A DNA stretch of 64,000 nt from an uncultured Nitrospiraceae bacterium. Lineage in GTDB: Bacteria; Nitrospirota; Thermodesulfovibrionia; Thermodesulfovibrionales; Dissulfurispiraceae. Position 1 is the first letter of the stretch. Every line of letters begins with the position of its first letter. This document shows positions 11,164 through 22,919 of this stretch, in pieces. A model generated the notes under the pieces. That model was not told the DNA's origin. It saw only the letters and a program-made list of their open reading frames with translations, and did not search any database. The stretch is from contig CAYMRS010000006.1 in the NCBI GenBank assembly GCA_964392915.1, forward strand, positions 14,756-78,755. Direction: 5' to 3'. The translations under genes and the position numbers were made by a program.

Positions 11164-12315
11164 CTACTGACCGCTTACTTGCTCATACGCCCACTCAAGC
11201 CACTCAACGCAAAGCTTAACGTCAGCGGTAGCAACCGTCGGGCCGCACCAGATGCGGAATCCTGTGGGCGCCGCTTTATACGCATTAATATCGTATGCAA
11301 CGCCCTCGGAAGCAAGCAGCTTCTCAATCTTCTTTGCGATCGCCTTCTGGTCATCCGCCGAAAGCGCGGTGAACTTCGGATCAACCACCTTCAGGCAGAC
11401 CGAGGTGTTGGAGCGGATCGCCTTGTCTTCAGCAAGGAAGCCGAAGTATTTGCTGCCCGCGACCCATGCCTCAACCGCTGCAAGGCTGTCGTTGGAGATC
11501 TTCATCAGCCCTGCCAGGCCGCCCTGCTGTTCAGCCCACTTCAGCGCGCAGAGCCAGTCCTCAACGCAAAGCATCGACGGCGTGTTGATCGGCGAACCGG
11601 CAAAGATATCCTCATTGAGCTTGCCGCTCTTCTTCATGCGGAAGATCTTCGGCATCGGCCATGCCGGATCATAGCTCTCAAGACGCGCAACCGCGCGCGG
11701 AGACAGCACCATCATGCCGTGGCCGCCCTCGCCGCCGAGGCATTTCTGCCAGGAGAAGGTGAGCACATCGATCTTCGCCCACGGAATGTCCATCGCAAAG
11801 AGTGCGCTGGTGGCGTCGCAGAGCGTAATGCCCTTTCTGTCGTCCGGAATCCAGTCGCCGTCCGGAACCTTCACGCCCCCGGTCGTACCGTTCCAGGTGA
11901 AGACCACGTCATTGTCAAAGTTCACTTTCGAGAGATTCGGTAGCTGTCCATACGGTGCTTCATAGACCGTTGCGTTCAGCTTCAGCTGCTTGGTGATGTC
12001 CGTAGCCCAGTCCTTGCCGAAGCTTTCCCAACACAGCACATCTACCGGCAGCGGCCCCAGCAGCGACCACATGGCACACTCAAACGCGCCGGTGTCGGAC
12101 CCCGCAAAAATGCCGACCTTGTAGTCAGCCGGAATGCCGAGGAGCGGTCTGATATTGTCGCATGCCGCCTTCAGTTTCTCTTTGCCAACGGCTGCTCTGT
12201 GCGAGCGGCCCGGCAGGTAACCGCCAAGCTCCTGAAGCGACCATCCCGGATGCTTGGTGCAGGGACCGGAACTGAAATTCGGAACAGCAGGTTTCTGTGC
12301 AGGCTTTTCTTTCAT
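11164..12315 (-). CDS. serC: phosphoserine aminotransferase (long, about 380-aa form)
   Basis: 383-aa ORF with the N-terminus ..NFSSGPC.KHPGW.. and a PLP-lysine region [12 protein letters not shown]. Confidence 0.85.
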
Positions 12316-12573
12316 GACACAACTCCTTTATCCATGTTAGTTGACGAAATTTCTTTGTGCCTCATTCAGGAAGAGCGTAGTGAGGGCATCCTCTTGCAGT
12401 GTACACCCTTGCTGAGCGGCAAAAAGCAGATCAGGCTGAAATATCTAAGTTTCTCTTCAGCAGTGCACTCAAAAAAGGTGTCATTAGTATAAATCAAACC
12501 GGGGGGAGGATGTATAGTAGGTGATGCCGTTGTGAGCATCCAATAGCCGATTGTTTATCAATGAAAATCTCTC

Positions 12574-12602
12574 TTGTTGTATATTACCTAAGATGCTAAG
12601 AT
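12574..12602 (+). promoter_or_regulatory. candidate sigma70-type promoter upstream of hsdM
   Basis: TTGTTG (12574-12579), a 17-nt spacer, then TAAGAT (12597-12602), about 65 nt upstream of the hsdM GTG. This is pattern match only. Confidence 0.3.
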
Positions 12603-12668
12603 GAGCGATCACCGAAAATAATCAGAGCAGCATGTCCCGATAGCACAGACATATGCGGAGAGAGAGAC

Positions 12669-15224
12669 GTGGCTCAACTAGAACATATCGAAGCCATTGA
12701 AAAACGGCTGTGGAGCGCAGCGGACACGCTGCGGGCAAACTCCAACTACGCCAGCAACGAATATTTCCTGCCTGTAATGGGCCTCGTTTTTCTGCGCCAT
12801 GCATACAGCCGCTTTCTCTCAGTCAAGGACGACATCGAGGCTGACCTGCCGACACGCGGCGGCAAAACCCGTCAGCTGACCAAGGAAGACTTCTCGCAGA
12901 AGAGTGCTATTTTCCTGCAGCCCAAGGCCCAGTTCGACGCGCTTGTAGCCTTGCCCGACAGCGCGGACCGCGCAAAGGCTATCATCGAAGCCATGGAGTC
13001 CATCGAGTCTGACTACGAAGGCCTGCGTGGTGTTCTGCCCAAGAGTGAATATCAGGAGCTCGATAATGCCGTACTCGGCCAGCTCCTGCGCACGCTCAAT
13101 CCGGAAGAACTCAAGCGCATCTCTGGTGACGTTTTCGGTCGCATCTACGAATATTTTTTAACCCAATTTGCCGACCAGAAAGCCCACGACGGAGGCGAAT
13201 TCTTCACCCCGGTTTCCCTGGTCTCGCTTATTGCCAATGTCATAGAACCGACCGCTGGGGCGGTGCTTGACCCGGCCTGCGGCTCGGGCGGCATGTTTGT
13301 GCAGAGCGCCCGCGTAGTCGAGCGGAGACACGAGAACCCGACCGAAAAGCTCACCTTCTACGGGCTGGAAAAGAACGCCACCACTATCCGGCTGGCCAAG
13401 ATGAACCTCGCGGTGCACGGTCTCGAAGGCGACATCCAGAAGTCCATCACCTATTACGAAGACCCGCACGAACTCCTGCGGAAGGCAGACTTTGTCATGG
13501 CCAATCCGCCCTTCAATGTAGACGAGATCGACGCCGACAAGGTCAAGAACGACCCGCGCCTTCCCTTCGGCCTGCCGGGCGTCAACAAGAAGGGCAAGGT
13601 CAGCAACGGCAACTATATCTGGATCAGCTATTTCTACAGCTACCTGAACGAACAGGGCCGCGCCGGGTTCGTCATGTCGTCACAGGCGTCCAGTGCCGGG
13701 CGCGATGAGGCAGCGGTCCGCCAAAAACTGGTCGAGACCGGCGATGTGGATATCATGATCGCCATCCGCTCCAACTTCTTTTACACCCGCACGGTTCCCT
13801 GCGAACTCTGGTTCATTGATCGAGACAAGCCCGATCAACCCTCATCCCCGGCCCTTCTCCCAACGGGAGAAGGGAGAAATTACCGGGGAGGATATGACTT
13901 TGCCGGATTGGTTGACCGGACTCGTGAGTTGCGGAAGAAACAGACTCCGGCGGAACAGATACTGTGGGAGATTCTGCGTGACCGGCAGTTTGCGGGATTG
14001 AAGTTTCGTCGACAGCATCAGTTTGGCGACTATGTCCTCGACTTCTTCTGTCATGAAGTGAAACTTGTGGTGGAACTCGATGGAGCGGTTCATGAACACC
14101 GCACAGAAAAAGATGCAAAGCGAGATGCATATCTGAAATCTCAGGGCATGCAGGTTCTCCGCATTTCCAATAAGACCCTCGTTAAAGATACCGCTTCGGT
14201 TTTGGCGCAAATAACTGCACTGCTCCCTTCGCCCATTGGGAGAGGGGCTGGGGGTGAGGGTCAGAACATTGTCCAACGACATAAGGAAAATGTTCTGATG
14301 ATCGATGCCCGCAATGTTTATCGAAAAATCACCCGGAAGATTTACGATTTCAGCCCCGAGCAGGAGCAAAACATCCTGGCCATCGTCTGGCTCTACCGGG
14401 GCGAGACCGGACGCTATCTCGACCTTGTGGCAGGTTATTGCACCCGCATGCTGGCCGAGGGCGCCGCGTGCTTTTCGGCTCAGGACAGAGATGGCGTGCA
14501 GACCAAACCGCTGCCTGCTTTCATCGGAGCATTGGCAGCATTGCACGGCGCTGTTGAGCCGTTTCTCAAGACGTTGGACAAAAACGCACCCCACGCTGAG
14601 GCCCTTAGGGAGCTGGACGAAGCTGTACCTATATTCAAGGCTGACGTGGAAGCATTTCACAAGAGCGTTGCCGACCAGCAGGCAGCATGGAAAAAACAGA
14701 AGACAACCAATGGCGAACTGAAGAAAGCAGTTGACCGGCTTGCGCCGATGGCCGAGACGAGCCGCGACCTCGTCAAGCAGACCGATCTGCTCTACAAACT
14801 CGCCTGCCGACTTGTCGAAATCTGCGAAAACGAATGCGCCGCCCGCGACAGCGACACGTGGTCGAGCCGTGAAATCACCCGTACCCGCAAGGCTGCCGAC
14901 GAAGCCCGCGCTCAGACAGTGGAGCAGCTCAAGCAGGTGCGCTACTTCTGGAAACAGGCTCACTGGCTCACCGAGCGCTTCCCCGACGCCAGGCTGCGCG
15001 ATGTGAAAGGGCTCGTCAAGCTTGTGAACCGGGCCGAGATCGAGGCCAACGACTGGAGCCTCACGCCCGGCCGCTATGTTGGTGTTGCGCCCGAAGAGGC
15101 GGACGAGGATTTCGACTTTGAAGAAACGCTCCGCAATATCCATGTTGAGCTTGAAGACCTGAACGCCGAGGCCGTGCAACTGGCAGCGACGATCAGGAAG
15201 AACTTCGAGGAATTGGGAATATGA
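12669..15224 (+). CDS. hsdM: type I restriction-modification DNA methyltransferase subunit M (long form) with an in-frame DUF559 endonuclease-like insertion
   Basis: 851-aa ORF with a GTG start preceded by GGAGAGAGAG. It has an HsdM N-terminal domain, SAM motif I DPACGSGGM (13269-13295), motif IV NPPF (13503-13514) and a C-terminal ..NDWSLTPGRYVG... Residues about 390-531 are a foreign module, listed separately. Confidence 0.93.
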   Translation: MAQLEHIEAIEKRLWSAADTLRANSNYASNEYFLPVMGLVFLRHAYSRFLSVKDDIEADLPTRGGKTRQLTKEDFSQKSAIFLQPKAQFDALVALPDSADRAKAIIEAMESIESDYEGLRGVLPKSEYQELDNAVLGQLLRTLNPEELKRISGDVFGRIYEYFLTQFADQKAHDGGEFFTPVSLVSLIANVIEPTAGAVLDPACGSGGMFVQSARVVERRHENPTEKLTFYGLEKNATTIRLAKMNLAVHGLEGDIQKSITYYEDPHELLRKADFVMANPPFNVDEIDADKVKNDPRLPFGLPGVNKKGKVSNGNYIWISYFYSYLNEQGRAGFVMSSQASSAGRDEAAVRQKLVETGDVDIMIAIRSNFFYTRTVPCELWFIDRDKPDQPSSPALLPTGEGRNYRGGYDFAGLVDRTRELRKKQTPAEQILWEILRDRQFAGLKFRRQHQFGDYVLDFFCHEVKLVVELDGAVHEHRTEKDAKRDAYLKSQGMQVLRISNKTLVKDTASVLAQITALLPSPIGRGAGGEGQNIVQRHKENVLMIDARNVYRKITRKIYDFSPEQEQNILAIVWLYRGETGRYLDLVAGYCTRMLAEGAACFSAQDRDGVQTKPLPAFIGALAALHGAVEPFLKTLDKNAPHAEALRELDEAVPIFKADVEAFHKSVADQQAAWKKQKTTNGELKKAVDRLAPMAETSRDLVKQTDLLYKLACRLVEICENECAARDSDTWSSREITRTRKAADEARAQTVEQLKQVRYFWKQAHWLTERFPDARLRDVKGLVKLVNRAEIEANDWSLTPGRYVGVAPEEADEDFDFEETLRNIHVELEDLNAEAVQLAATIRKNFEELGI
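13838..14261 (+). mobile_element. DUF559 (Vsr-like endonuclease fold) module bounded by imperfect 23-bp inverted repeats, read in frame with hsdM
   Basis: ACCCTCATCCCCGGCCCTTCTCC (13838-13860) matches the reverse complement of 14239-14261 (ACCCTCACCCCCAGCCCCTCTCC) at 20 of 23 positions. The interior encodes RELRKKQTPAEQILWEILRDRQFAGLKFRRQHQFGDYVLDFFCHEVKLVVELDGAVHEHR..DAKRDAYLKSQGMQVLRISNK, the DUF559 signature. Confidence 0.75.
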
Positions 15225-16279
15225 CGGGAAAAAAGAAGGCGCCCAGCATGATCAATCCGCCGGCCGGAGCAGTGCCGGCAGCCTACGCATCGGCGTTTGC
15301 AGAGATTAAGGAGCGTGTTCGCACCGCCCAGTATGCCGCCCTGAGATCGGTCAATAAACGACTGGTCGGGCTCTACTGGGACATCGGGCGCATTATCCTC
15401 GAACGCCAGGCAACAGAAGGCTGGGGTAAATCCGTAGTCGAGCGCCTGTCTGCCGATCTGCAGCGGGAATTCCCCGGAACAGGCGGTTTCTCAGCTTCCA
15501 ACGTCTGGCGTATGAAGGCTTTCTATGAGGGCTATTGTTCGTCAGAAAAACTCGCACCACTGGTGCGAGAAATTGCATGGAGTCATAATGTGGTCATTTT
15601 GGAGCGATGCTCCGATCTCCTTGAACGCGAATTCTACCTGCGCATGACCCGCAAGTTCGGCTGGTCGAAAAACGTGCTCATCCATCAGATCGAAAACCAG
15701 AGTTATGAGAAAAGTCTGCTGGGCCAGACCAATTTCGACAAGGCACTTACCCCGGAGTTGCGCAGCCGGGCAAAGCTCGCCGTCAGGGACGAATATACCT
15801 TCGACTTTCTGGAACTGGGCGAAAGACACTCTGAGCGCGAACTGGAGCGTGCACTGATCGGCCGTATCGAGGATTTCCTCCGTGCCATGGGCGGCATGTT
15901 CGCGTTTGTGGGCAGCCAGTTCAGGCTGGAGGTTGCGGGTAAGGAGTACTTCATTGACCTGCTGCTGTTCCATCGAAAACTAAAGTGCCTGGTTGCCATA
16001 GAGCTCAAGATCGGCGAGTTCGAGCCCGAGTTCGTCGGCAAAATGCAGTTCTACCTCGCCGCGCTGGACAAGCTGGTGCGCATGGAGGGCGAAAACCCGG
16101 CAATTGGCATCATTCTCTGCAAGGAGAAAAACCGCACCATCGTTGAATACGCTCTCATGCCTGCCGACAAGCCCATCGGCGTGGCAACCTATGACATCGT
16201 CAAGCGCCTGCCCAAGGCGCTCAAGGGTCAGCTCCCCAGCCCCGAACAAATCGCCAGAATACTGGAGGACGGGGTATGA
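15221..16279 (+). CDS. YhcG-family PD-(D/E)xK nuclease domain protein (DUF1016)
   Basis: 352-aa ORF with an ATGA overlap onto the hsdM stop. It is YhcG-like over its full length (..LVGLYWDIGRIILERQ..GWGKSVVERLSADLQREFPG..GFS..NVWRMKAFY..). The C-terminal core FIDLLLFHRKLKCLVAIELKIGEF is a D...E-x-K motif. Confidence 0.85.
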   Translation: MTGKKKAPSMINPPAGAVPAAYASAFAEIKERVRTAQYAALRSVNKRLVGLYWDIGRIILERQATEGWGKSVVERLSADLQREFPGTGGFSASNVWRMKAFYEGYCSSEKLAPLVREIAWSHNVVILERCSDLLEREFYLRMTRKFGWSKNVLIHQIENQSYEKSLLGQTNFDKALTPELRSRAKLAVRDEYTFDFLELGERHSERELERALIGRIEDFLRAMGGMFAFVGSQFRLEVAGKEYFIDLLLFHRKLKCLVAIELKIGEFEPEFVGKMQFYLAALDKLVRMEGENPAIGIILCKEKNRTIVEYALMPADKPIGVATYDIVKRLPKALKGQLPSPEQIARILEDGV

Positions 16280-17472
16280 ACTGGGAGACCAAGAAACTTG
16301 AAGCTGTCGCAGATTTCAGTCTTGGGAAAATGCTTGACCAGAAAAAGAATCGTGGCGAACCACTACCTTATCTTGCAAATGTCAACGTTCGCTGGGGGGA
16401 ATTCGCTCTGGCCGATCTGAGGGAGATGCGGTTCGAGCAACATGAGTTGGACCGCTATGGTCTTAAATATGGCGATATCGTAATGTGCGAAGGTGGAGAA
16501 CCGGGGCGATGTGCGATTTGGAAAGAGCAGTGCGCCAGCATGATGATCCAGAAAGCACTTCACCGGATTCGGCCACACGATTGTTTGCGGCCAGAGTTTC
16601 TCTACTACTTTTTTCTCTACAAAGGTCGAACTGGTCATCTGGCGTCACTTTTCACTGGTTCGACTATCAAGCACCTTCCACGTGAAAAGCTTGCGCTGGT
16701 TGAAGTGCCAGTGCCGCCCCACTCTACCCAGGCCCAAATCGCTTCGGTCCTCTCCGCCTACGACGACCTGATCGAGAACAACCGGCGGCGGATTCAGTTG
16801 CTGGAGCAGGCGGCGCGGCTGCTCTACAAGGAATGGTTTGTCCACCTCCGCTTCCCCGGCCACGAACACACCAAAATCATCGACGGCGTGCCTGAGGGGT
16901 GGGAAAAGAAAGCCGCCTTTGAGGTTATGGATGTTCTCAGTGGCGGTACACCCAAGACAACGAATCTGTCCTATTGGTACGGGGATATTCCATTTTTCAC
17001 CCCAAAGGACGCGACCGATTTTGCATATGTGCATGACACTGAGAAATCCATCACCGAGGCCGGATTAAAGAACTGCAACAGCAATCTTTATCTAAAGGAT
17101 ACCGTATTCATCACTGCTCGAGGAACGGTTGGCAAGATCAATCTCGCCCAATGCCCCATGGCAATGAACCAGTCCTGTTATGCGCTCGTTGCTCACCCAC
17201 CGCTAAATCAGCAGTTTCTGTATTTTGCCTTGGTGGACGGAGTAGAACAATTTCGTAGCCGGGCTGTCGGTGCGGTATTCGATGCGATCGTTCGGGATAC
17301 ATTCAAGCTGATTCCTTTCGTCGTGCCAGACGAAAAGCTGATTACAGCTTTTATGGAGCACGTATCCCCAATGCTTGCTCAGATTGATAACCTTGCTGGG
17401 CAGGTTCGAAGCCTACGAAAAGCCCGCGATCTTCTTCTGCCCAAACTGATGAACGGGGAGGTGGCGGTATGA
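16276..17472 (+). CDS. hsdS: type I restriction-modification specificity subunit S
   Basis: 398-aa ORF with an ATGA overlap onto the upstream stop. It has two target-recognition halves, each followed by a conserved helix (..DDLIENNRRRIQLLEQAARLLYKEWFV.. and ..LRKARDLLLPKLMNGEV). Confidence 0.9.
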   Translation: MNWETKKLEAVADFSLGKMLDQKKNRGEPLPYLANVNVRWGEFALADLREMRFEQHELDRYGLKYGDIVMCEGGEPGRCAIWKEQCASMMIQKALHRIRPHDCLRPEFLYYFFLYKGRTGHLASLFTGSTIKHLPREKLALVEVPVPPHSTQAQIASVLSAYDDLIENNRRRIQLLEQAARLLYKEWFVHLRFPGHEHTKIIDGVPEGWEKKAAFEVMDVLSGGTPKTTNLSYWYGDIPFFTPKDATDFAYVHDTEKSITEAGLKNCNSNLYLKDTVFITARGTVGKINLAQCPMAMNQSCYALVAHPPLNQQFLYFALVDGVEQFRSRAVGAVFDAIVRDTFKLIPFVVPDEKLITAFMEHVSPMLAQIDNLAGQVRSLRKARDLLLPKLMNGEVAV

Positions 17473-17657
17473 ACCTGAAATCACTTCCCTCCCAGATCGC
17501 CCTCGGCGAAGACTCTACCCGCCAGTTCAAGGCAGATGTGAAGAGCGCCGACTCCCAGGCTATGGAAATGGCGGTCTTTGTCAAAACGGGCGGCATGGTT
17601 TTATCAGGTCACGTTGACCCGATACGTGACCTTTTAAGCATGGAGGCAGCGGCATGA
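17469..17657 (+). pseudogene. N-terminal stub of an AlbA_2 (Schlafen-like) ATP-binding/DNA-binding protein
   Basis: 62-aa ORF. SQIALGEDSTRQFKADVKSADSQAMEMAVFVKTGG matches the start of AlbA_2-domain proteins (..GE....EFK.......L..E..AF.N..GG), after which similarity stops. It has ATGA overlaps on both sides. Confidence 0.55.
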
Positions 17658-18682
17658 ATGATTCCGAAATTCTTATTTATCAAGCCGCCGACGGCAAAAT
17701 CAAAATCGATGTCCGGCTGGAAGACGAGACGGTCTGGCTGACCCAGGACCACATGGCTGGGCTGTTCGGTAAAAGCAAGAAGACTATTTCCGAGCACATC
17801 CGCAATATTTTCAGTGAAGGCGAACTGGTCGAGGAAGTGGTTGTCCGGAATTTCCGGACAACCACTCGACATGGCGCCATGCCTGACAAAACCCAGTCCA
17901 GAGACGTTCAATTTTACAACCTGGACGTGATCATCTCCGTTGGTTACCGGGTCAGGTCCCACCAAGGCACGCAGTTTCGCATCTGGGCCACACAGCGGCT
18001 GAAGGAGTACATCGTCAAGGGCTTCGCCCTGAACGATGAGCGCTTCAAAACGGGCAACTCGATGGCCTATTTCACGGAACTGCAGGAACGCATCCGTGAA
18101 ATCCGTCTTTCCGAGCGCTTTTTCTATCAGAAAATCAAGGATATCTATACCACCAGCATCGACTGCGACCCCAGGGACGAAAAGACCATCGAGTTTTTCA
18201 AGGTGGTTCAGAACAAACTCCTCTGGGCTATCAGCCGGCAAACGGCGGCGGAACTGGTGTATCGCCGGGCGGACGCCGCGCTACCCTTGATGGGTATGCA
18301 ATCGTTCGATAAGCAAGGTGATCTGGCGGTACGTAAAAGCGATGCGAGCATCGCCAAGAACTACCTCGCCGAGGACGAAATGAAGCTGCTCGGCCTGCTG
18401 GTGGAACAATACCTGGCCTTCGCCGAAACCATGGCCCAGCAGAGAATTCCCATGCACATGGCAGACTGGATTCAACGGCTGGACGCCATTATTCAGCTTA
18501 ATGGGCGGGAGTTGTTGACCCATGCAGGCAAAATCAGCCAACAGATGGCCCAGGAAAAAGCCGATCTGGAATATGACAAGTTCCGGGAAACGCAGCGGCG
18601 CTTCCAGCATGAAGAGAGCCTCAAGGAACTGGAAGAGGATATTGAAAAGATAAAGCCGCCTCAGGGAAAGGGAGGCAATTGA
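17654..18682 (+). CDS. RhuM-family (virulence protein RhuM / Fic-DOC-related) protein
   Basis: 342-aa ORF. IYQAADGKIKIDVRLEDETVWLTQDHMAGLFGKSKKTISEHIRNIF..GEL, ..FYNLDVIISVGYRVRSHQGTQFRIWATQRLKEYIVKGF.LNDERF.. is the characteristic RhuM sequence. Confidence 0.88.
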   Translation: MNDSEILIYQAADGKIKIDVRLEDETVWLTQDHMAGLFGKSKKTISEHIRNIFSEGELVEEVVVRNFRTTTRHGAMPDKTQSRDVQFYNLDVIISVGYRVRSHQGTQFRIWATQRLKEYIVKGFALNDERFKTGNSMAYFTELQERIREIRLSERFFYQKIKDIYTTSIDCDPRDEKTIEFFKVVQNKLLWAISRQTAAELVYRRADAALPLMGMQSFDKQGDLAVRKSDASIAKNYLAEDEMKLLGLLVEQYLAFAETMAQQRIPMHMADWIQRLDAIIQLNGRELLTHAGKISQQMAQEKADLEYDKFRETQRRFQHEESLKELEEDIEKIKPPQGKGGN

Positions 18683-21600
18683 ATGCCCCCGACTCCTTAC
18701 ACAGAAGACACCCTCGTTCAGCAGACAACGGCTGAATACCTTGAACAGGTGCTCGGCTGGCGGTCGGTGTATGCCTACAACACCGAGGACTTCGGGCCGG
18801 AGAGCCTGCTGGGGCGGGCGACGGACCGCGATGTGGTGCTGACCCGCTCCCTGCGGCAGAAGCTCGAAGCGCTGAACCCCGGCCTGCCGCCCACGGCGTC
18901 TCCGGATTTTCGATTTCGACTGCCCGGAAAACAATGATTTTCTCTGTGTGCGGGAGCTCTGGATACGGGGCGACCTGTACCGCCGCCGGGCAGACATTGT
19001 CGGGTTCGTCAACGGCCTGCCGTTGCTGTTCATGGAGCTGAAGAATGTCAGCAAGGATATTCGCGCTGCGTATGAGCGCAATTTTCTTGACTACCGCGAC
19101 ACGGTGCCGCACCTGTTTCATCACAATGCGGTGGTTGTGCTGGCCAATGGGGTAGATGCGCGGCTTGGGTCGGTTACGAGCCGTTTTGAACATTTTCACG
19201 AGTGGAAGCGGCTGGCAGAGGACGAACCGGGCGTTGTGGACATGGAGACACTGCTGAAGGGGGTCTGTGCGAAAGCGAATTTTCTGGACATGGTGGAGAA
19301 CTTCATTGTTTTCGATGACTCGACCGGGGAGTTCCGGAAGATAGTGGCGAGGAATCATCAGTTTCTTGGCGTCAATCGGGCTATTGATGCGGTTCGGGAC
19401 CGGAAGTACCGTGGCGGCAAGCTTGGGGTGTTCTGGCATACGCAGGGGTCGGGCAAGAGCTATTCGATGGTGATGTTTACGCGGAAGGTGCATCGCAAGC
19501 TGGGCGGCAACTTCACGTTTCTGGTCCTGACGGATCGCGATGATCTTGATACACAGATTTACAAGACCTTTGCCGGGTGCGGTGTGGTGGACAATGACCG
19601 GGACCCCTGCCGGGCAGCGAGCGGAGAGCATCTCGCGCAACTGCTTGCCCAGCACAAGGCGCACATCTTTTCGCTGATCCAGAAATTCAACCAGAACGTT
19701 GTCGAGGGTGAAGCCTATACGCAGCGGGACGATATCATCGTGATTACTGATGAGGCCCATCGTACACAATATGGAACACTGGCGCTCAATATGCGCAACG
19801 CCCTGCCGAATGCCAGCTATATCGGTTTTACCGGAACACCGTTGTTCAAGGATGACGAGATAACCCGGCGCGTGTTCGGTGAGTATGTCTCCACCTATGA
19901 TTTCCAGCGGGCCGTGGAGGATAAAGCGACGGTACCGCTTTATTATGATGCCCGCGGAGACAAGCTTGGGGTGGCGATTGGTGATCTGAACGAGCGGATT
20001 GCCGCGAAGCTGGAAGAGCTGGAAACCGGCGCCATAGATGTTGAGCAGAGGCTGGAGCAGGAACTCAAGCGCGATTACCATATCATTACGGCGGGGAAAA
20101 GGCTGGATCAGGTGGCCCGCGATTTCGTGCAGCACTACTCAATGGCGTGGGAAACCGGCAAGGCCATGCTGGTCTGCATCGACAAGATCACCTGCGTTCG
20201 GATGCACCGGCTGATTGAGTTTTACTGGAACGAACGAATCGGTGAACTGCAGGCGCAACTTCCTACGGCCACTGATGAACAGGACGAGCAGTACCGTCTC
20301 CGGCAGATCGGGTGGATGCGACAGACGCAGATGGCGGTTGTGGTCAGCGAGGAGCAGGGCGAGGTGGAGAAGTTCCGCAAATGGGATCTGGACATTACAC
20401 CGCACCGGCGTCTGATCAAGGAGGGCATGTCACTGCCCGATGCGATGCGGCGGCAACCGCAGTTTCAGAATATGCAGCGGCTGGCGCTGGACGATGCATT
20501 CAAGGCAGAGGAGCATCCGTTTCGCATTGCCATTGTCTGCGCGATGTGGTTGACCGGCTTTGATGTCCCCAGCCTTTCGACGCTGTATTTGGACAAGCCG
20601 CTCAAGGCGCATACGCTGATGCAGGCGATTGCGCGTGCGAACCGGGTGCATGAAGGCAAGAACAACGGGATGATTGTGGATTATTGCGGTATCCTGAAGA
20701 GTCTCCGGAAAGCGTTGGCGACCTTTGCCGGAACGGGAGACGGAGGGCGCGGTGGAGAGGGCGGCGAGACTGAACCTGCCCGGCCTGATGAGGAGTTGCT
20801 GGCTGATCTTGCAGAGGCGATTGCTCTTGTGCGGTCGTTTCTTGCTGAGCGGAATGCGTCACTGGACAACATTGTCAACAATACGGGGTTCCGGAGAAAT
20901 GCGGCAATTCAAGCAGCCAAGGAGGCGGCAAATGAAAACGACGAAACGCGAAAGCGGTTTGAGATCATGTGCCGCGCGGTTTTCTCCAAGTTCAAGGCCT
21001 GCATTACGGTTGGAGGCGTCAACGACTATCGGACAGACTATGATGCGATAAACATCATTTACAAGAGCCTGATGCAGGATCGTGAGCAGGCCGATATCAG
21101 CGGGATTATCCGTCAATTGCACCAGGTCGTTGATGAGGCCATAGAGACCCGCCCAGAGTGGATAAGCGAGGATTCCGAAGCCTACGATATCAGCAAGATC
21201 GATTTTGGCCGTCTTCGCCGGGAGTTTGAACGTACCCCGTCCAAGCGCACCACGGTGCAGAATCTGAAAACAGCCATTGAGCAACGACTGCAGTGCCTGC
21301 TCCGGCAGAACCCGCTCCGTACTGATTTTCAGCGGCATTACGAAGAGATTGTTGCCGGGTACAACCGCGAGAAAGACCGGGTGACGATCGAAAAGACATT
21401 TGAAGCGCTGCTCCAGCTCCTGAACGGAATGAGTGAAGAGGAAAACCGCGCTGTTCGTGAAGGACTTGATGAAGAATCACTGGCTGTGTTTGACCTGCTG
21501 AAGAAACCGGCTCTGGAGGCCGATGAGATCAAGCGCATCAAGGTGGTTGCGGTTGATTTGCTGAAGATCGTCAAGGCCCGCATTCAGGAGATCGAGGATT

Positions 21601-21794
21601 GGGAGAGCCGCGAAGCTACCCGCGATCGCATACGGTTGACCATCCGCGATTTTTTGTGGAGCGACAAAACCGGTCTGCCCGTTGATCAATACACCGAGGA
21701 AGATGTCAGGATTCGTGCGGAAGATGTTTACCGCCATGTCTATCGGGTTTATCCAACTCTTCCGTCGCCGTATTACGATGTGCGCGTTGCATAA
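18683..21794 (+). pseudogene. hsdR: type I restriction enzyme subunit R, N-terminal region disrupted (frame change with apparent internal deletion near 18876-18900)
   Basis: ORF 18683-18937 (84 aa, MPPTPYTEDTLVQQTTAEYLEQVLGW..LNPGLP) is an HsdR N-terminus. The remainder (nuclease motif D-x13-ELK in RRADIVGFVNGLPLLFMELK, Walker A GSGKS, DEAH in VITDEAHRTQ, 948 aa from GTG 18948) lies in a different frame that is open only from 18876. Confidence 0.7.
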
Positions 21795-21892
21795 GATATC
21801 ATCGGGCACGATCACGCGTTGCTAATATAGCAAATCATCCGTATAACAAAGAACGAACATGATAGAATTCGGCATAATAAGCAAAGCAGAGA

Positions 21893-22004: not shown

Positions 22005-22703
22005 ATGGCAATTGCTTCTCTTCTCGGCCTCCTCTTTCCGCAGCGCTGTCCTGTCTGCGGCAAGGAAGCGCAGTCGTCGCCCGCGCTTCCCTTATGCGGG
22101 TCCTGCTGGGCGGATATCCCTCATTACACGGGCCCGGCCTGCAGACAGTGCGGACTCCCCACGATCTCACACCACACCGATCTCTGTCAGACGTGCACAA
22201 CCGATCCGCCCCCTTTTTCTCTCATGCGTTCCTATGGCATCTACGACGGTGTGCTGAAAGAAGCGATCCATTTCCTGAAATTCAACGGCAAGCGACGACT
22301 GGCGAGACCGCTTGCCGACCTTCTGGCGGAGCTTGACCTTCCCGCTGCCGATGTGATTGTTCCGGTTCCCCTTCATGTCAATCAGCTGAGAAAGCGCGAA
22401 TTCAATCAGACGGCCCTTATCGGGAAACATCTTGCCCGGCGACTGAAGATTCCGCTCCGCATAGACATTCTGTCGAAAACACGCGTTACCGCGGCCCAGA
22501 CAGCCGTTGACCGAAAAAAACGGTTCAAAAATATTCACAAGGCATTCATCGCGTCGGACGCCGCGCGGGGACTGAAGATACTGCTTGTTGATGACGTCAT
22601 AACCACCGGAGCAACAGCACGCGAATGCGCACATTCCCTGCGGCGAGCCGGAGCCAAGGAAGTATGTGTTATCGCGCTCGCGCGTTCAATGCCGAAATAC
22701 TGA
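22005..22703 (+). CDS. comF: ComF-family protein (phosphoribosyltransferase domain)
   Basis: 232-aa ORF with N-terminal Cys pairs (CPVCG..CGSC; CRQCG..CQTC) and the PRTase motif ILLVDDVITTGATA. Confidence 0.85.
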   Translation: MAIASLLGLLFPQRCPVCGKEAQSSPALPLCGSCWADIPHYTGPACRQCGLPTISHHTDLCQTCTTDPPPFSLMRSYGIYDGVLKEAIHFLKFNGKRRLARPLADLLAELDLPAADVIVPVPLHVNQLRKREFNQTALIGKHLARRLKIPLRIDILSKTRVTAAQTAVDRKKRFKNIHKAFIASDAARGLKILLVDDVITTGATARECAHSLRRAGAKEVCVIALARSMPKY

Positions 22704-22834: not shown

Positions 22835-22919
22835 GCCGAAGTGGTGGAATTGGTAGACACGCACGTTTGAGGGGCGTGTGGGGCAACCTGTGCGGGTTCG
22901 AGTCCCGCCTTCGGCACCA
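22835..22919 (+). tRNA. tRNA-Leu (anticodon GAG), class II with long variable arm, CCA encoded
   Basis: Folded by hand. The acceptor pairs GCCGAAG with CTTCGGC. The anticodon stem pairs CACGT with GCGTG around the loop TTGAGGG (GAG). The variable arm is 13 nt. The T arm is GCGGG-TTCGAGT-CCCGC, with a 3' ACCA. Confidence 0.93.

Follow-up and report, generated by a model that had tools for sequence, protein, structure and literature searches.

Introduction

The occurrence of additional genes among the hsdM, hsdS, and hsdR genes of type I restriction-modification (R-M) operons raises the question of whether the products of these genes depend upon the R-M proteins, or whether they are independent units which are transferred and expressed along with them. 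Such genes are found in the prr locus of E. coli, where the anticodon nuclease PrrC is nested among, and co-transcribed with, the hsd genes of EcoprrI, and nested cargo is likewise seen in the restriction-linked "rlo" open reading frames (ORFs) of hsd loci in Campylobacter jejuni. In the present work, this question is addressed for a type I R-M operon in a 64,000 nucleotide (nt) stretch of DNA from an uncultured Nitrospiraceae bacterium (assembly GCA_964392915.1, contig CAYMRS010000006.1; the whole stretch is referred to below as the window), in which genes for a YhcG/DUF1016 protein and a RhuM-family protein lie between hsd genes. A first-pass annotation of this operon, drawing upon the prr precedent, had proposed that YhcG and/or RhuM could be effectors kept latent by the R-M proteins. 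Our analyses favor, with a probability of roughly 0.75, a different explanation, viz. that an acquired R-M operon of ~9.4 kb carries autonomous and exchangeable defence cassettes and has partly decayed in this genome.

Organization of the Operon

The operon is made up of the following features, all of which are on the forward strand:

12669-15224, forward: hsdM, 851 amino acids (aa), GTG start, ending in an ATGA overlap with the YhcG gene
15221-16279, forward: gene for a YhcG/DUF1016 protein, presumed PD-(D/E)xK nuclease, 352 aa, located between hsdM and hsdS
16276-17472, forward: hsdS, 398 aa, full length
17469-17657, forward: 62-codon ORF, remnant of an AlbA_2 gene
17654-18682, forward: gene for a RhuM-family protein, 342 aa, directly 5' of hsdR
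18683-18937, forward: N-terminal fragment of hsdR, 84 aa
18948-21794, forward: body of hsdR, 948 aa from a GTG, in a frame open from 18876

The first five ORFs, from hsdM to the RhuM gene, are joined by four ATGA overlaps and the ATG at 18683 directly abuts the TGA of the RhuM gene (18680-18682), exactly as the first-pass annotation had placed these junctions. A purine-rich run resembling a Shine-Dalgarno (SD) sequence is located 6–12 nt 5' of every internal start, inside the preceding gene. Matching junction types are present in five related loci (L009 and L022–L025, described below), and because they recur in these operons the tight packing is conserved rather than due to chance. The operon genes are thus arranged compactly and in one orientation as a single unit, and their starts are coupled. 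The earlier description of six translationally coupled ORFs holds in terms of the junctions, but not in terms of six intact ORFs, for hsdR is split and the 62-aa ORF is a remnant. In a scan for sigma-70 consensus promoters, which is uninformative for the host organism, 0 promoters were found in the operon where 5.1 were expected, and the number of terminator-like hairpins within it (12 vs. 10.6 expected) is at chance level; these scans neither prove nor contradict a single transcript.

The protein families assigned in the first pass (viz. N6_Mtase, YhcG_C with DUF1016_N, Methylase_S, and Virulence_RhuM) were all matched by Pfam. HsdM matches N6_Mtase (1.3e-70), HsdM_N (1.2e-14), and the PADLOC model MTase_I (4.3e-257), and its retention of the AdoMet motif DPACGSG and the catalytic NPPF identifies it as a type I HsdM. 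HsdS matches Methylase_S in 2 stretches (7.4e-31) and Specificity_I of PADLOC (1.9e-76; residues 1-398 on a profile of 397 positions), and is a full-length type I HsdS with two target-recognition domains.

Insertion of the Operon between serC and comF

The position of the operon between serC and comF, with a tRNA-Leu gene further on, is as the first-pass annotation had reported. The island and its surroundings are as follows:

12332-21871, no strand assigned: inserted island, comprising only the hsd operon with a short leader and trailer
11164-12315, reverse: serC (phosphoserine transaminase; NCBIfam NF002841, 3.3e-186), left flank
22005-22703, forward: gene for a comF/gntX-family protein (TIGR00201, 9.7e-33; DZR_2; Pribosyltran), right flank
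22835-22919, forward: tRNA-Leu(GAG), found by ARAGORN and Rfam, 132 nt past comF

In a genome of the same genus (G005), serC and comF are divergent neighbors which are separated by a spacer of only 266 bp, compared to 9,540 bp in the window, and the comparison with relatives that had been proposed earlier is thereby answered. Since the two genes are adjacent in this close relative, the operon represents an insertion of ~9.4 kb. Homology between the window and G005 stops at 12331 and restarts at 21872, and that with a second genome (G002) extends to 12521; these borders delimit an island of ~9.3–9.5 kb, in which the operon is accompanied by a leader of ~140 bp and a trailer of ~60 bp. The tRNA-Leu gene lies outside the island borders, beyond comF, and is therefore not the insertion point. 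No integrase and no direct repeats at the borders were found at the island, which agrees with the first-pass annotation, and the island DNA has no match among the plasmids in PLSDB. A candidate att-like border repeat, with a best match of 12/14, was rejected as a chance occurrence.

The serC–comF spacer (window 12332-12530 and 21857-21871; loci L015, L016, L017/L018, and L019) varies within the genus. In genome G001 it contains a repeated small gene for a GIY-YIG nuclease, which breaks the assembly of that genome, and in G002 it holds two unrelated ORFs of 259 and 205 aa; G003 is without serC.

Variation of Cargo in Related Operons

Our analyses have identified six loci whose HsdR proteins (1,080–1,091 aa) are 83–86% identical to that of the window, and in which the cargo differs:

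L009: hsdM-hsdS-KwaA-KwaB-57aa-AAA/nSTAND3-S8 protease-hsdR
L022 (Geobacter grbiciae): Fic, hsdM-hsdS-RhuM-hsdR
L023: hsdM-170aa-hsdS-AlbA_2-Fic-like_C-hsdR
L024: hsdM-hsdS-264aa-DEAD helicase-AAA_21-181aa-hsdR
L025: hsdM-HTH/Fic-like_C-hsdS-264aa-DEAD helicase-hsdR
L028: AlbA_2-hsdR-RhuM

The ends of the backbone genes which border this cargo are highly similar. The C-terminus of HsdS (LLPKLMNGEVAV) and its overlap junction are common to the window, L023, and L024, and this end differs by one or two conservative changes in the HsdS of L009, L022, and L025; the gene following hsdS starts on an overlapping ATGA in L009, L022, L024, and L025, and on a GTGA in L023. On the other side of the slot, the window and L022 share the GGGAGGCAATTGAATG junction of RhuM with hsdR, and their RhuM proteins, which occupy the same position, are 85% identical. 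In L009, whose HsdR is 86% identical to that of the window, the Kiwa genes (KwaA/KwaB) occupy the same hsdS–hsdR slot with the same overlapping junctions, although they belong to a different cargo family and constitute a proven stand-alone system. At L009:4870-10004 and in the sister loci L010–L014, a complete Kiwa pair shares this slot with an AAA/nSTAND3 ATPase and an S8 protease.

An earlier occupant of this slot has left a trace in the window. The 62-codon ORF between hsdS and the RhuM gene consists of the first ~45 codons of an AlbA_2/HATPase_c_4 (SLFN_AlbA_2) gene, as judged by local alignment of its product with the N-terminal end of AlbA_2 from L028, a protein of 473 aa (score of 138, reached by 0 of 2000 shuffles); the Pfam profile search of the 62-aa product gave no match. 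An intact AlbA_2 gene is present in the equivalent slot in L023, and AlbA_2 adjoins hsdR in L028. The shared gene ends suggest that the cassettes are swapped by recombination near them, and the AlbA_2 stump, and possibly also the lesion in hsdR, may represent scars of cassette turnover at these conserved junctions. A further arrangement that looks like a cassette which has carried along the 5' end of hsdR is found in a Prosthecochloris metagenome-assembled genome (L029:7001-12842), where RhuM, an 89-aa N-terminal fragment of HsdR, YhcG, and a full hsdR follow one another and a second RhuM is located downstream.

The Lesion in hsdR

The first-pass annotation had treated hsdR as a single ORF at 18683-21794; the frame that begins at 18683 stops at 18937, and the first start codon in the frame of the hsdR body is the GTG at 18948, which lacks an SD sequence. 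Full-length HsdR references (P0002, P0004, and P0024; 1082–1084 aa) are 84–86% identical to the HsdR of the window, and in tblastn searches they match the 84-aa piece over residues 1-76 with 74–77% identity. The first ~75 residues of this piece are thus HsdR-like, after which the frame is lost. The deletion junction lies at 18894-18907 on the forward strand, where the first of the two aligned segments ends at 18907 and the second starts at 18894, so that the two frames overlap by 14 nt. Residues ~77–118 of HsdR (the reference segment AVRQIV...GERVRE) are absent from the window, and the deletion of ~140 nt, not being a multiple of 3, causes a frameshift.

The body of hsdR retains the D...ELK nuclease motif, the DEAH motif, and the motor and C-terminal domains, with matches to SWI2_SNF2 (7e-71), T1RH-like_C (1.6e-24), and TIGR00348 (1.3e-130). 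The HSDR_N profile is matched only from position 96 of 198, and ~135 residues at the N-terminal end of the nuclease domain have been either lost or separated from the body, so that no single intact HsdR with an N-terminal PD-(D/E)xK domain, an SF2 motor, and a C-terminal domain is encoded. Because hsdR is broken, while M and S are intact, the R-M system is most likely restriction-deficient yet still methylating. The right end of the deletion falls within a few codons of the loop preceding ...IDFDxPxNN in HsdR, and the same loop holds a DUF559 cassette in P0122 and P0220 and a hairpin repeat without cargo in L027:8026-8500; the deletion may have arisen through imprecise loss of a DUF559/hairpin element. 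A separate origin of the N-terminal piece of hsdR was also considered, and was rejected because its nucleotide identity (74–80%) is too similar to that of the body (76–85%) for such a claim.

The alternative that the split in hsdR is an assembly or consensus error, and that the operon is intact and restriction-proficient in the cells, appears unlikely. The genome is assembled in 88 contigs, records of the exact 948-aa product come from a single contig, and microhomology at the deletion junction could mislead an assembler; however, the flanks align cleanly on both sides of a clean gap of 140 nt, with no ambiguous bases, and the AlbA_2 stump 1.2 kb upstream provides a second sign of decay.

The YhcG and RhuM Proteins

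Both passenger proteins belong to families that have been described as candidate defence genes. YhcG is matched by the Pfam families YhcG_C (4.3e-61) and DUF1016_N (2.3e-45), its catalytic D246...ELK is intact, and the preservation of this D...ExK motif indicates that it is presumably a nuclease. It falls within PDC-S02 of PADLOC, with a full-length match (PDLC04831; 1.5e-146 over residues 17-350), and it also has a match (1.6e-87) to phrog_22762, a family of phage proteins with no known function. RhuM matches Virulence_RhuM (PF13310; 3e-100) and falls within PDC-S05 (PDLC04853; 2.6e-136 over residues 3-333, likewise a full-length match), and it is 77–94% identical across phyla. The label "Fic-like" that had been given to RhuM was not borne out, as neither half of the protein has a Fic or Fic_N match in Pfam at E <= 10 and the motif HxFx(D/E)GNGRxxR is absent from it.

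In RhuM, only the N-terminal region at residues ~30–110 resembles a DNA-binding module, of a small alpha/beta type; its match to Phage_pRha is weak (E 0.025), and the C-terminal part is helical. An AlphaFold2 model of this protein, built from an alignment of 42 sequences with 77–94% identity, has a mean predicted local distance difference test (pLDDT) value of 46.6 and is too poor for fold comparison. Sequence searches of the PDB with RhuM and YhcG gave nothing meaningful, the PrrC/RloC models of Pfam, NCBIfam, and PADLOC have no match to either protein, and the DNA of the RhuM gene has no match in E. coli genomes. Elsewhere in the same genome, a 334-aa frame (contig C18:9588-9902, reverse strand) matches the RhuM profile over its first ~108 positions only, and PDC-S23 of PADLOC has the same N-terminal module as PDC-S05; from these sequences, it seems that recombination joins the N-terminal module of RhuM to differing C-terminal parts.

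Payne et al. derived the PDC candidates by "guilt by embedding", from genes that lie inside BREX, DISARM, and type I R-M systems (10.1101/2024.01.29.577857), and RhuM is listed as FAM_00003 in a supplementary table of that work. The families in the window are the same in terms of their hidden Markov models and their embedding in type I R-M operons, and nothing essential differs; the window differs from the PDC examples in that both candidates are present in one operon and that hsdR is broken. In other work, DUF1016 and RhuM were found to be 17-fold and 14-fold enriched, respectively, beside inverting hsdS genes (PMC9881135), and DUF1016 was reported to co-occur with restriction genes and also with integrase and DDE domains, and a role in restriction enzymes was proposed for it (PMC3424549). 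A PDC-S05 (RhuM-domain) gene from a cold-seep study, placed in E. coli B with no R-M partner reported, is reported to have lowered the plating of phages T7 and T5 ~1000-fold and that of T4 ~10-fold (10.1101/2024.09.26.614923).

Genomic Contexts of YhcG and RhuM

The neighborhoods of the two families were surveyed by scanning 250 genomes of the same class, which are not independent of one another, for RhuM and YhcG_C. Up to 9.5 kb per side was fetched around 44 copies of RhuM and 56 copies of YhcG, and the neighboring ORFs were labeled with a panel of ~140 HsdM/S/R references; an earlier adjacency count, made from 150 of 294 N6_Mtase matches, gave a lower bound and is superseded by this census. 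RhuM is co-oriented with hsd genes in 14 of the 44 cases (32%), in 12 of which it is embedded between them, and the corresponding numbers for YhcG are 17 of 56 (30%) and 8. When only copies flanked by 6 kb or more on each side are considered, hsd genes accompany 9 of 22 copies of RhuM (41%) and 8 of 27 copies of YhcG (30%). As the chance expectation for such co-location is ~1%, the two genes are not random neighbors of type I hsd operons (30–41%), and the neighborhood statistics that the first-pass annotation had called for show an enrichment, in agreement with the published one.

For the remaining 59–70% of the copies, the flanks that were fetched contain no hsd gene. In maximum-likelihood trees, the label "with hsd" changes at least 10 times for RhuM and at least 13 times for YhcG, compared to 12.6 and 15.5 changes when the labels are shuffled; because the observed numbers are close to those for shuffled labels, embedded and free copies are intermixed. 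The two genes can also be found together, as in genome G136, where the order is hsdM-Fic-ORF6N-YhcG-hsdS-...-RhuM-hsdR.

Relationship of the Passengers to the R-M Proteins

These results are best explained by a scheme in which a horizontally acquired operon landed in the variable serC–comF spacer. Its hsdM/hsdS/hsdR backbone would offer two slots for cargo, one between hsdM and hsdS, which here holds YhcG (PDC-S02), and another between hsdS and hsdR, where RhuM (PDC-S05) follows what is left of an earlier AlbA_2 gene. A single promoter in the leader probably reads all of the genes, with coupled translation, and the passengers would benefit by being transferred and expressed along with the R-M genes, while acting independently of the Hsd proteins, which would not keep them in a latent state. 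The out-of-frame deletion of ~140 nt in the nuclease domain of HsdR would have removed restriction and left methylation in place. The combination of fixed slots with the location of most copies outside of hsd loci favors autonomous modules over effectors that depend upon R-M.

Several observations weigh against this scheme. RhuM lies directly before hsdR in 10 of the 14 hsd-associated cases, which include unrelated type I families, and in about 13 of 17 such cases YhcG comes after hsdM and/or before hsdS, a regularity that could reflect a functional tie not predicted by pure hitch-hiking. The same genome also contains another type I R-M locus, which is intact and has the order hsdM-YhcG-hsdS-hsdR:

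Contig C22, L021:4864-12483, reverse: hsdM (708 aa), YhcG (394 aa), hsdS (433 aa), and hsdR (1008 aa)

The genes of this locus have overlapping junctions and YhcG is in the same slot, although the locus is from another type I family. Additionally, the proportion of copies with no hsd gene nearby is overestimated on short contigs, and divergent Hsd families may escape the reference panel; a consensus search for a promoter of the operon identified none; and the deletion in hsdR is known from a single metagenome-assembled contig. The published test of RhuM leaves room for assistance from R-M proteins, since E. coli B carries a type I system of its own. Lastly, a defence role for YhcG is unproven, because the PDC-S02 representative gave no protection against T4, T5, or T7 (10.1101/2024.09.26.614923).

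The regularity of the slots can also be read as functional, with YhcG and RhuM acting as sentinels that are tied to the neighboring subunit (e.g. RhuM firing when HsdR is blocked or lost), in which case a copy with a broken hsdR would be either primed or counter-selected; in a milder form of this suggestion, the 3' end of hsdS and the 5' end of hsdR would be the recombination joints of an integron-like cargo platform, of which the stump and the deletion would be the scars. We consider these suggestions doubtful.

The proposal that HsdM and HsdS (with or without HsdR) bind YhcG and/or RhuM, and that a phage anti-restriction factor, by disabling the R-M enzyme, frees the passenger to kill the cell or cut the phage, is similarly regarded as improbable. 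Both genes are indeed within an operon with coupled translation, they hold the same positions in type I families that are unrelated, and the RhuM–hsdR junction is conserved between the window and L022. The PrrC precedent is a real one, described by Payne et al. (10.1101/2024.01.29.577857) as embedded in type I R-M systems almost exclusively. The window families resemble PrrC in their nesting between hsd genes but not in near-exclusive embedding, only ~30–40% of their copies being embedded or with hsd genes and ~60–70% having none in the flanks (<=9.5 kb per side), and they have no homology to PrrC or RloC. PrrC is masked by the Hsd proteins and released by a phage peptide; the likeness of the window locus to prr is one of nesting. 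Furthermore, embedded copies are scattered among free ones on the trees, the PDC-S05 gene works alone in a foreign host (10.1101/2024.09.26.614923), and the passenger ORFs of the window are still open and full length although hsdR is broken. The latency that had been proposed for YhcG and RhuM is thus not supported by our results; it is weakened rather than refuted, because the fixed positions leave room for a functional link.

An equally small probability is given to the suggestion that the passengers are accessory subunits, YhcG being an extra or alternative nuclease recruited by M2S and RhuM a DNA-binding helper of HsdR, with their positions reflecting the order of assembly. The intact PD-(D/E)xK motif of YhcG, its location between hsdM and hsdS in two systems of one genome and in ~13 of 17 hsd-associated cases, and the restriction role proposed for DUF1016 (PMC3424549) are in accordance with this, and a substitute for the damaged nuclease domain of HsdR is possible in principle. 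Most copies are found outside of hsd loci, however, and loci with 83–86% identical HsdR proteins (L009 and L022–L025) are without YhcG and, save for L022, without RhuM, and carry unrelated cargo instead. Another suggestion is that the two genes play no part in defence, being hitch-hikers which are selfish or derived from mobile elements, and are kept because disruption of the R-M genes is costly to the host. This would fit the lack of protection by PDC-S02 against three phages, the phrog_22762 match of YhcG, and the integrase/DDE co-occurrence (PMC3424549), but is improbable in view of the protection reported for the RhuM-domain PDC-S05 (10.1101/2024.09.26.614923), the highly conserved full-length ORFs of both genes, and the presence of bona fide defence cargo such as Kiwa in the same slots.

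A DUF559 Cassette within hsdM

The hsdM gene contains an insert which is a feature separate from the passenger genes:

13838-14261, forward: DUF559 (Vsr-like endonuclease) cassette, 147 aa, in frame within hsdM

This insert matches PF04480 (DUF559) at aa 416-518 of HsdM (2.5e-35), and its ends are inverted repeats of 39 nt (hairpin arms at 13838-13876 and 14223-14261; 87% complementary). The HsdM of L009 (704 aa) is 92% and 79% identical to that of the window on the two sides of the insert, and the L009 gene is without it; the cassette is present as a single copy in this genome. In a length-unbiased search of 1.84 billion proteins, 79 of the top 150 matches to the insert are host proteins of at least 300 aa, the majority of them R-M proteins, and the host classes among these 79 are Methylase_S (36), N6_Mtase (14), Eco57I-type (12), MmeI-type (11), and HSDR_N (5). 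DUF559 cassettes occupy many differing insertion sites in their host proteins. A stop-free antisense frame of 469 codons (13842-15251, reverse strand) also runs across hsdM, including the cassette.

Significance for the RhuM and YhcG Families

Under the favored explanation of autonomous, exchangeable cassettes, this locus is a well-delimited case of other defence genes being carried by a type I R-M operon, and the corresponding site is empty in a sister genome. Similar backbones, with HsdR proteins that are 83–86% identical, host Kiwa, AlbA_2, a helicase, or RhuM in the same slots. Because the general idea has already been published and is incorporated in PADLOC, the value of this case is confirmatory. 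The census adds that the two families occupy fixed slots when they are embedded and that the majority of their copies are located outside of hsd loci; the positional rule, by which YhcG follows hsdM and RhuM precedes hsdR, is not spelled out in the available parts of the paper in which the PDC candidates were defined (10.1101/2024.01.29.577857). These observations should be useful for the design of mechanistic tests for RhuM and YhcG.

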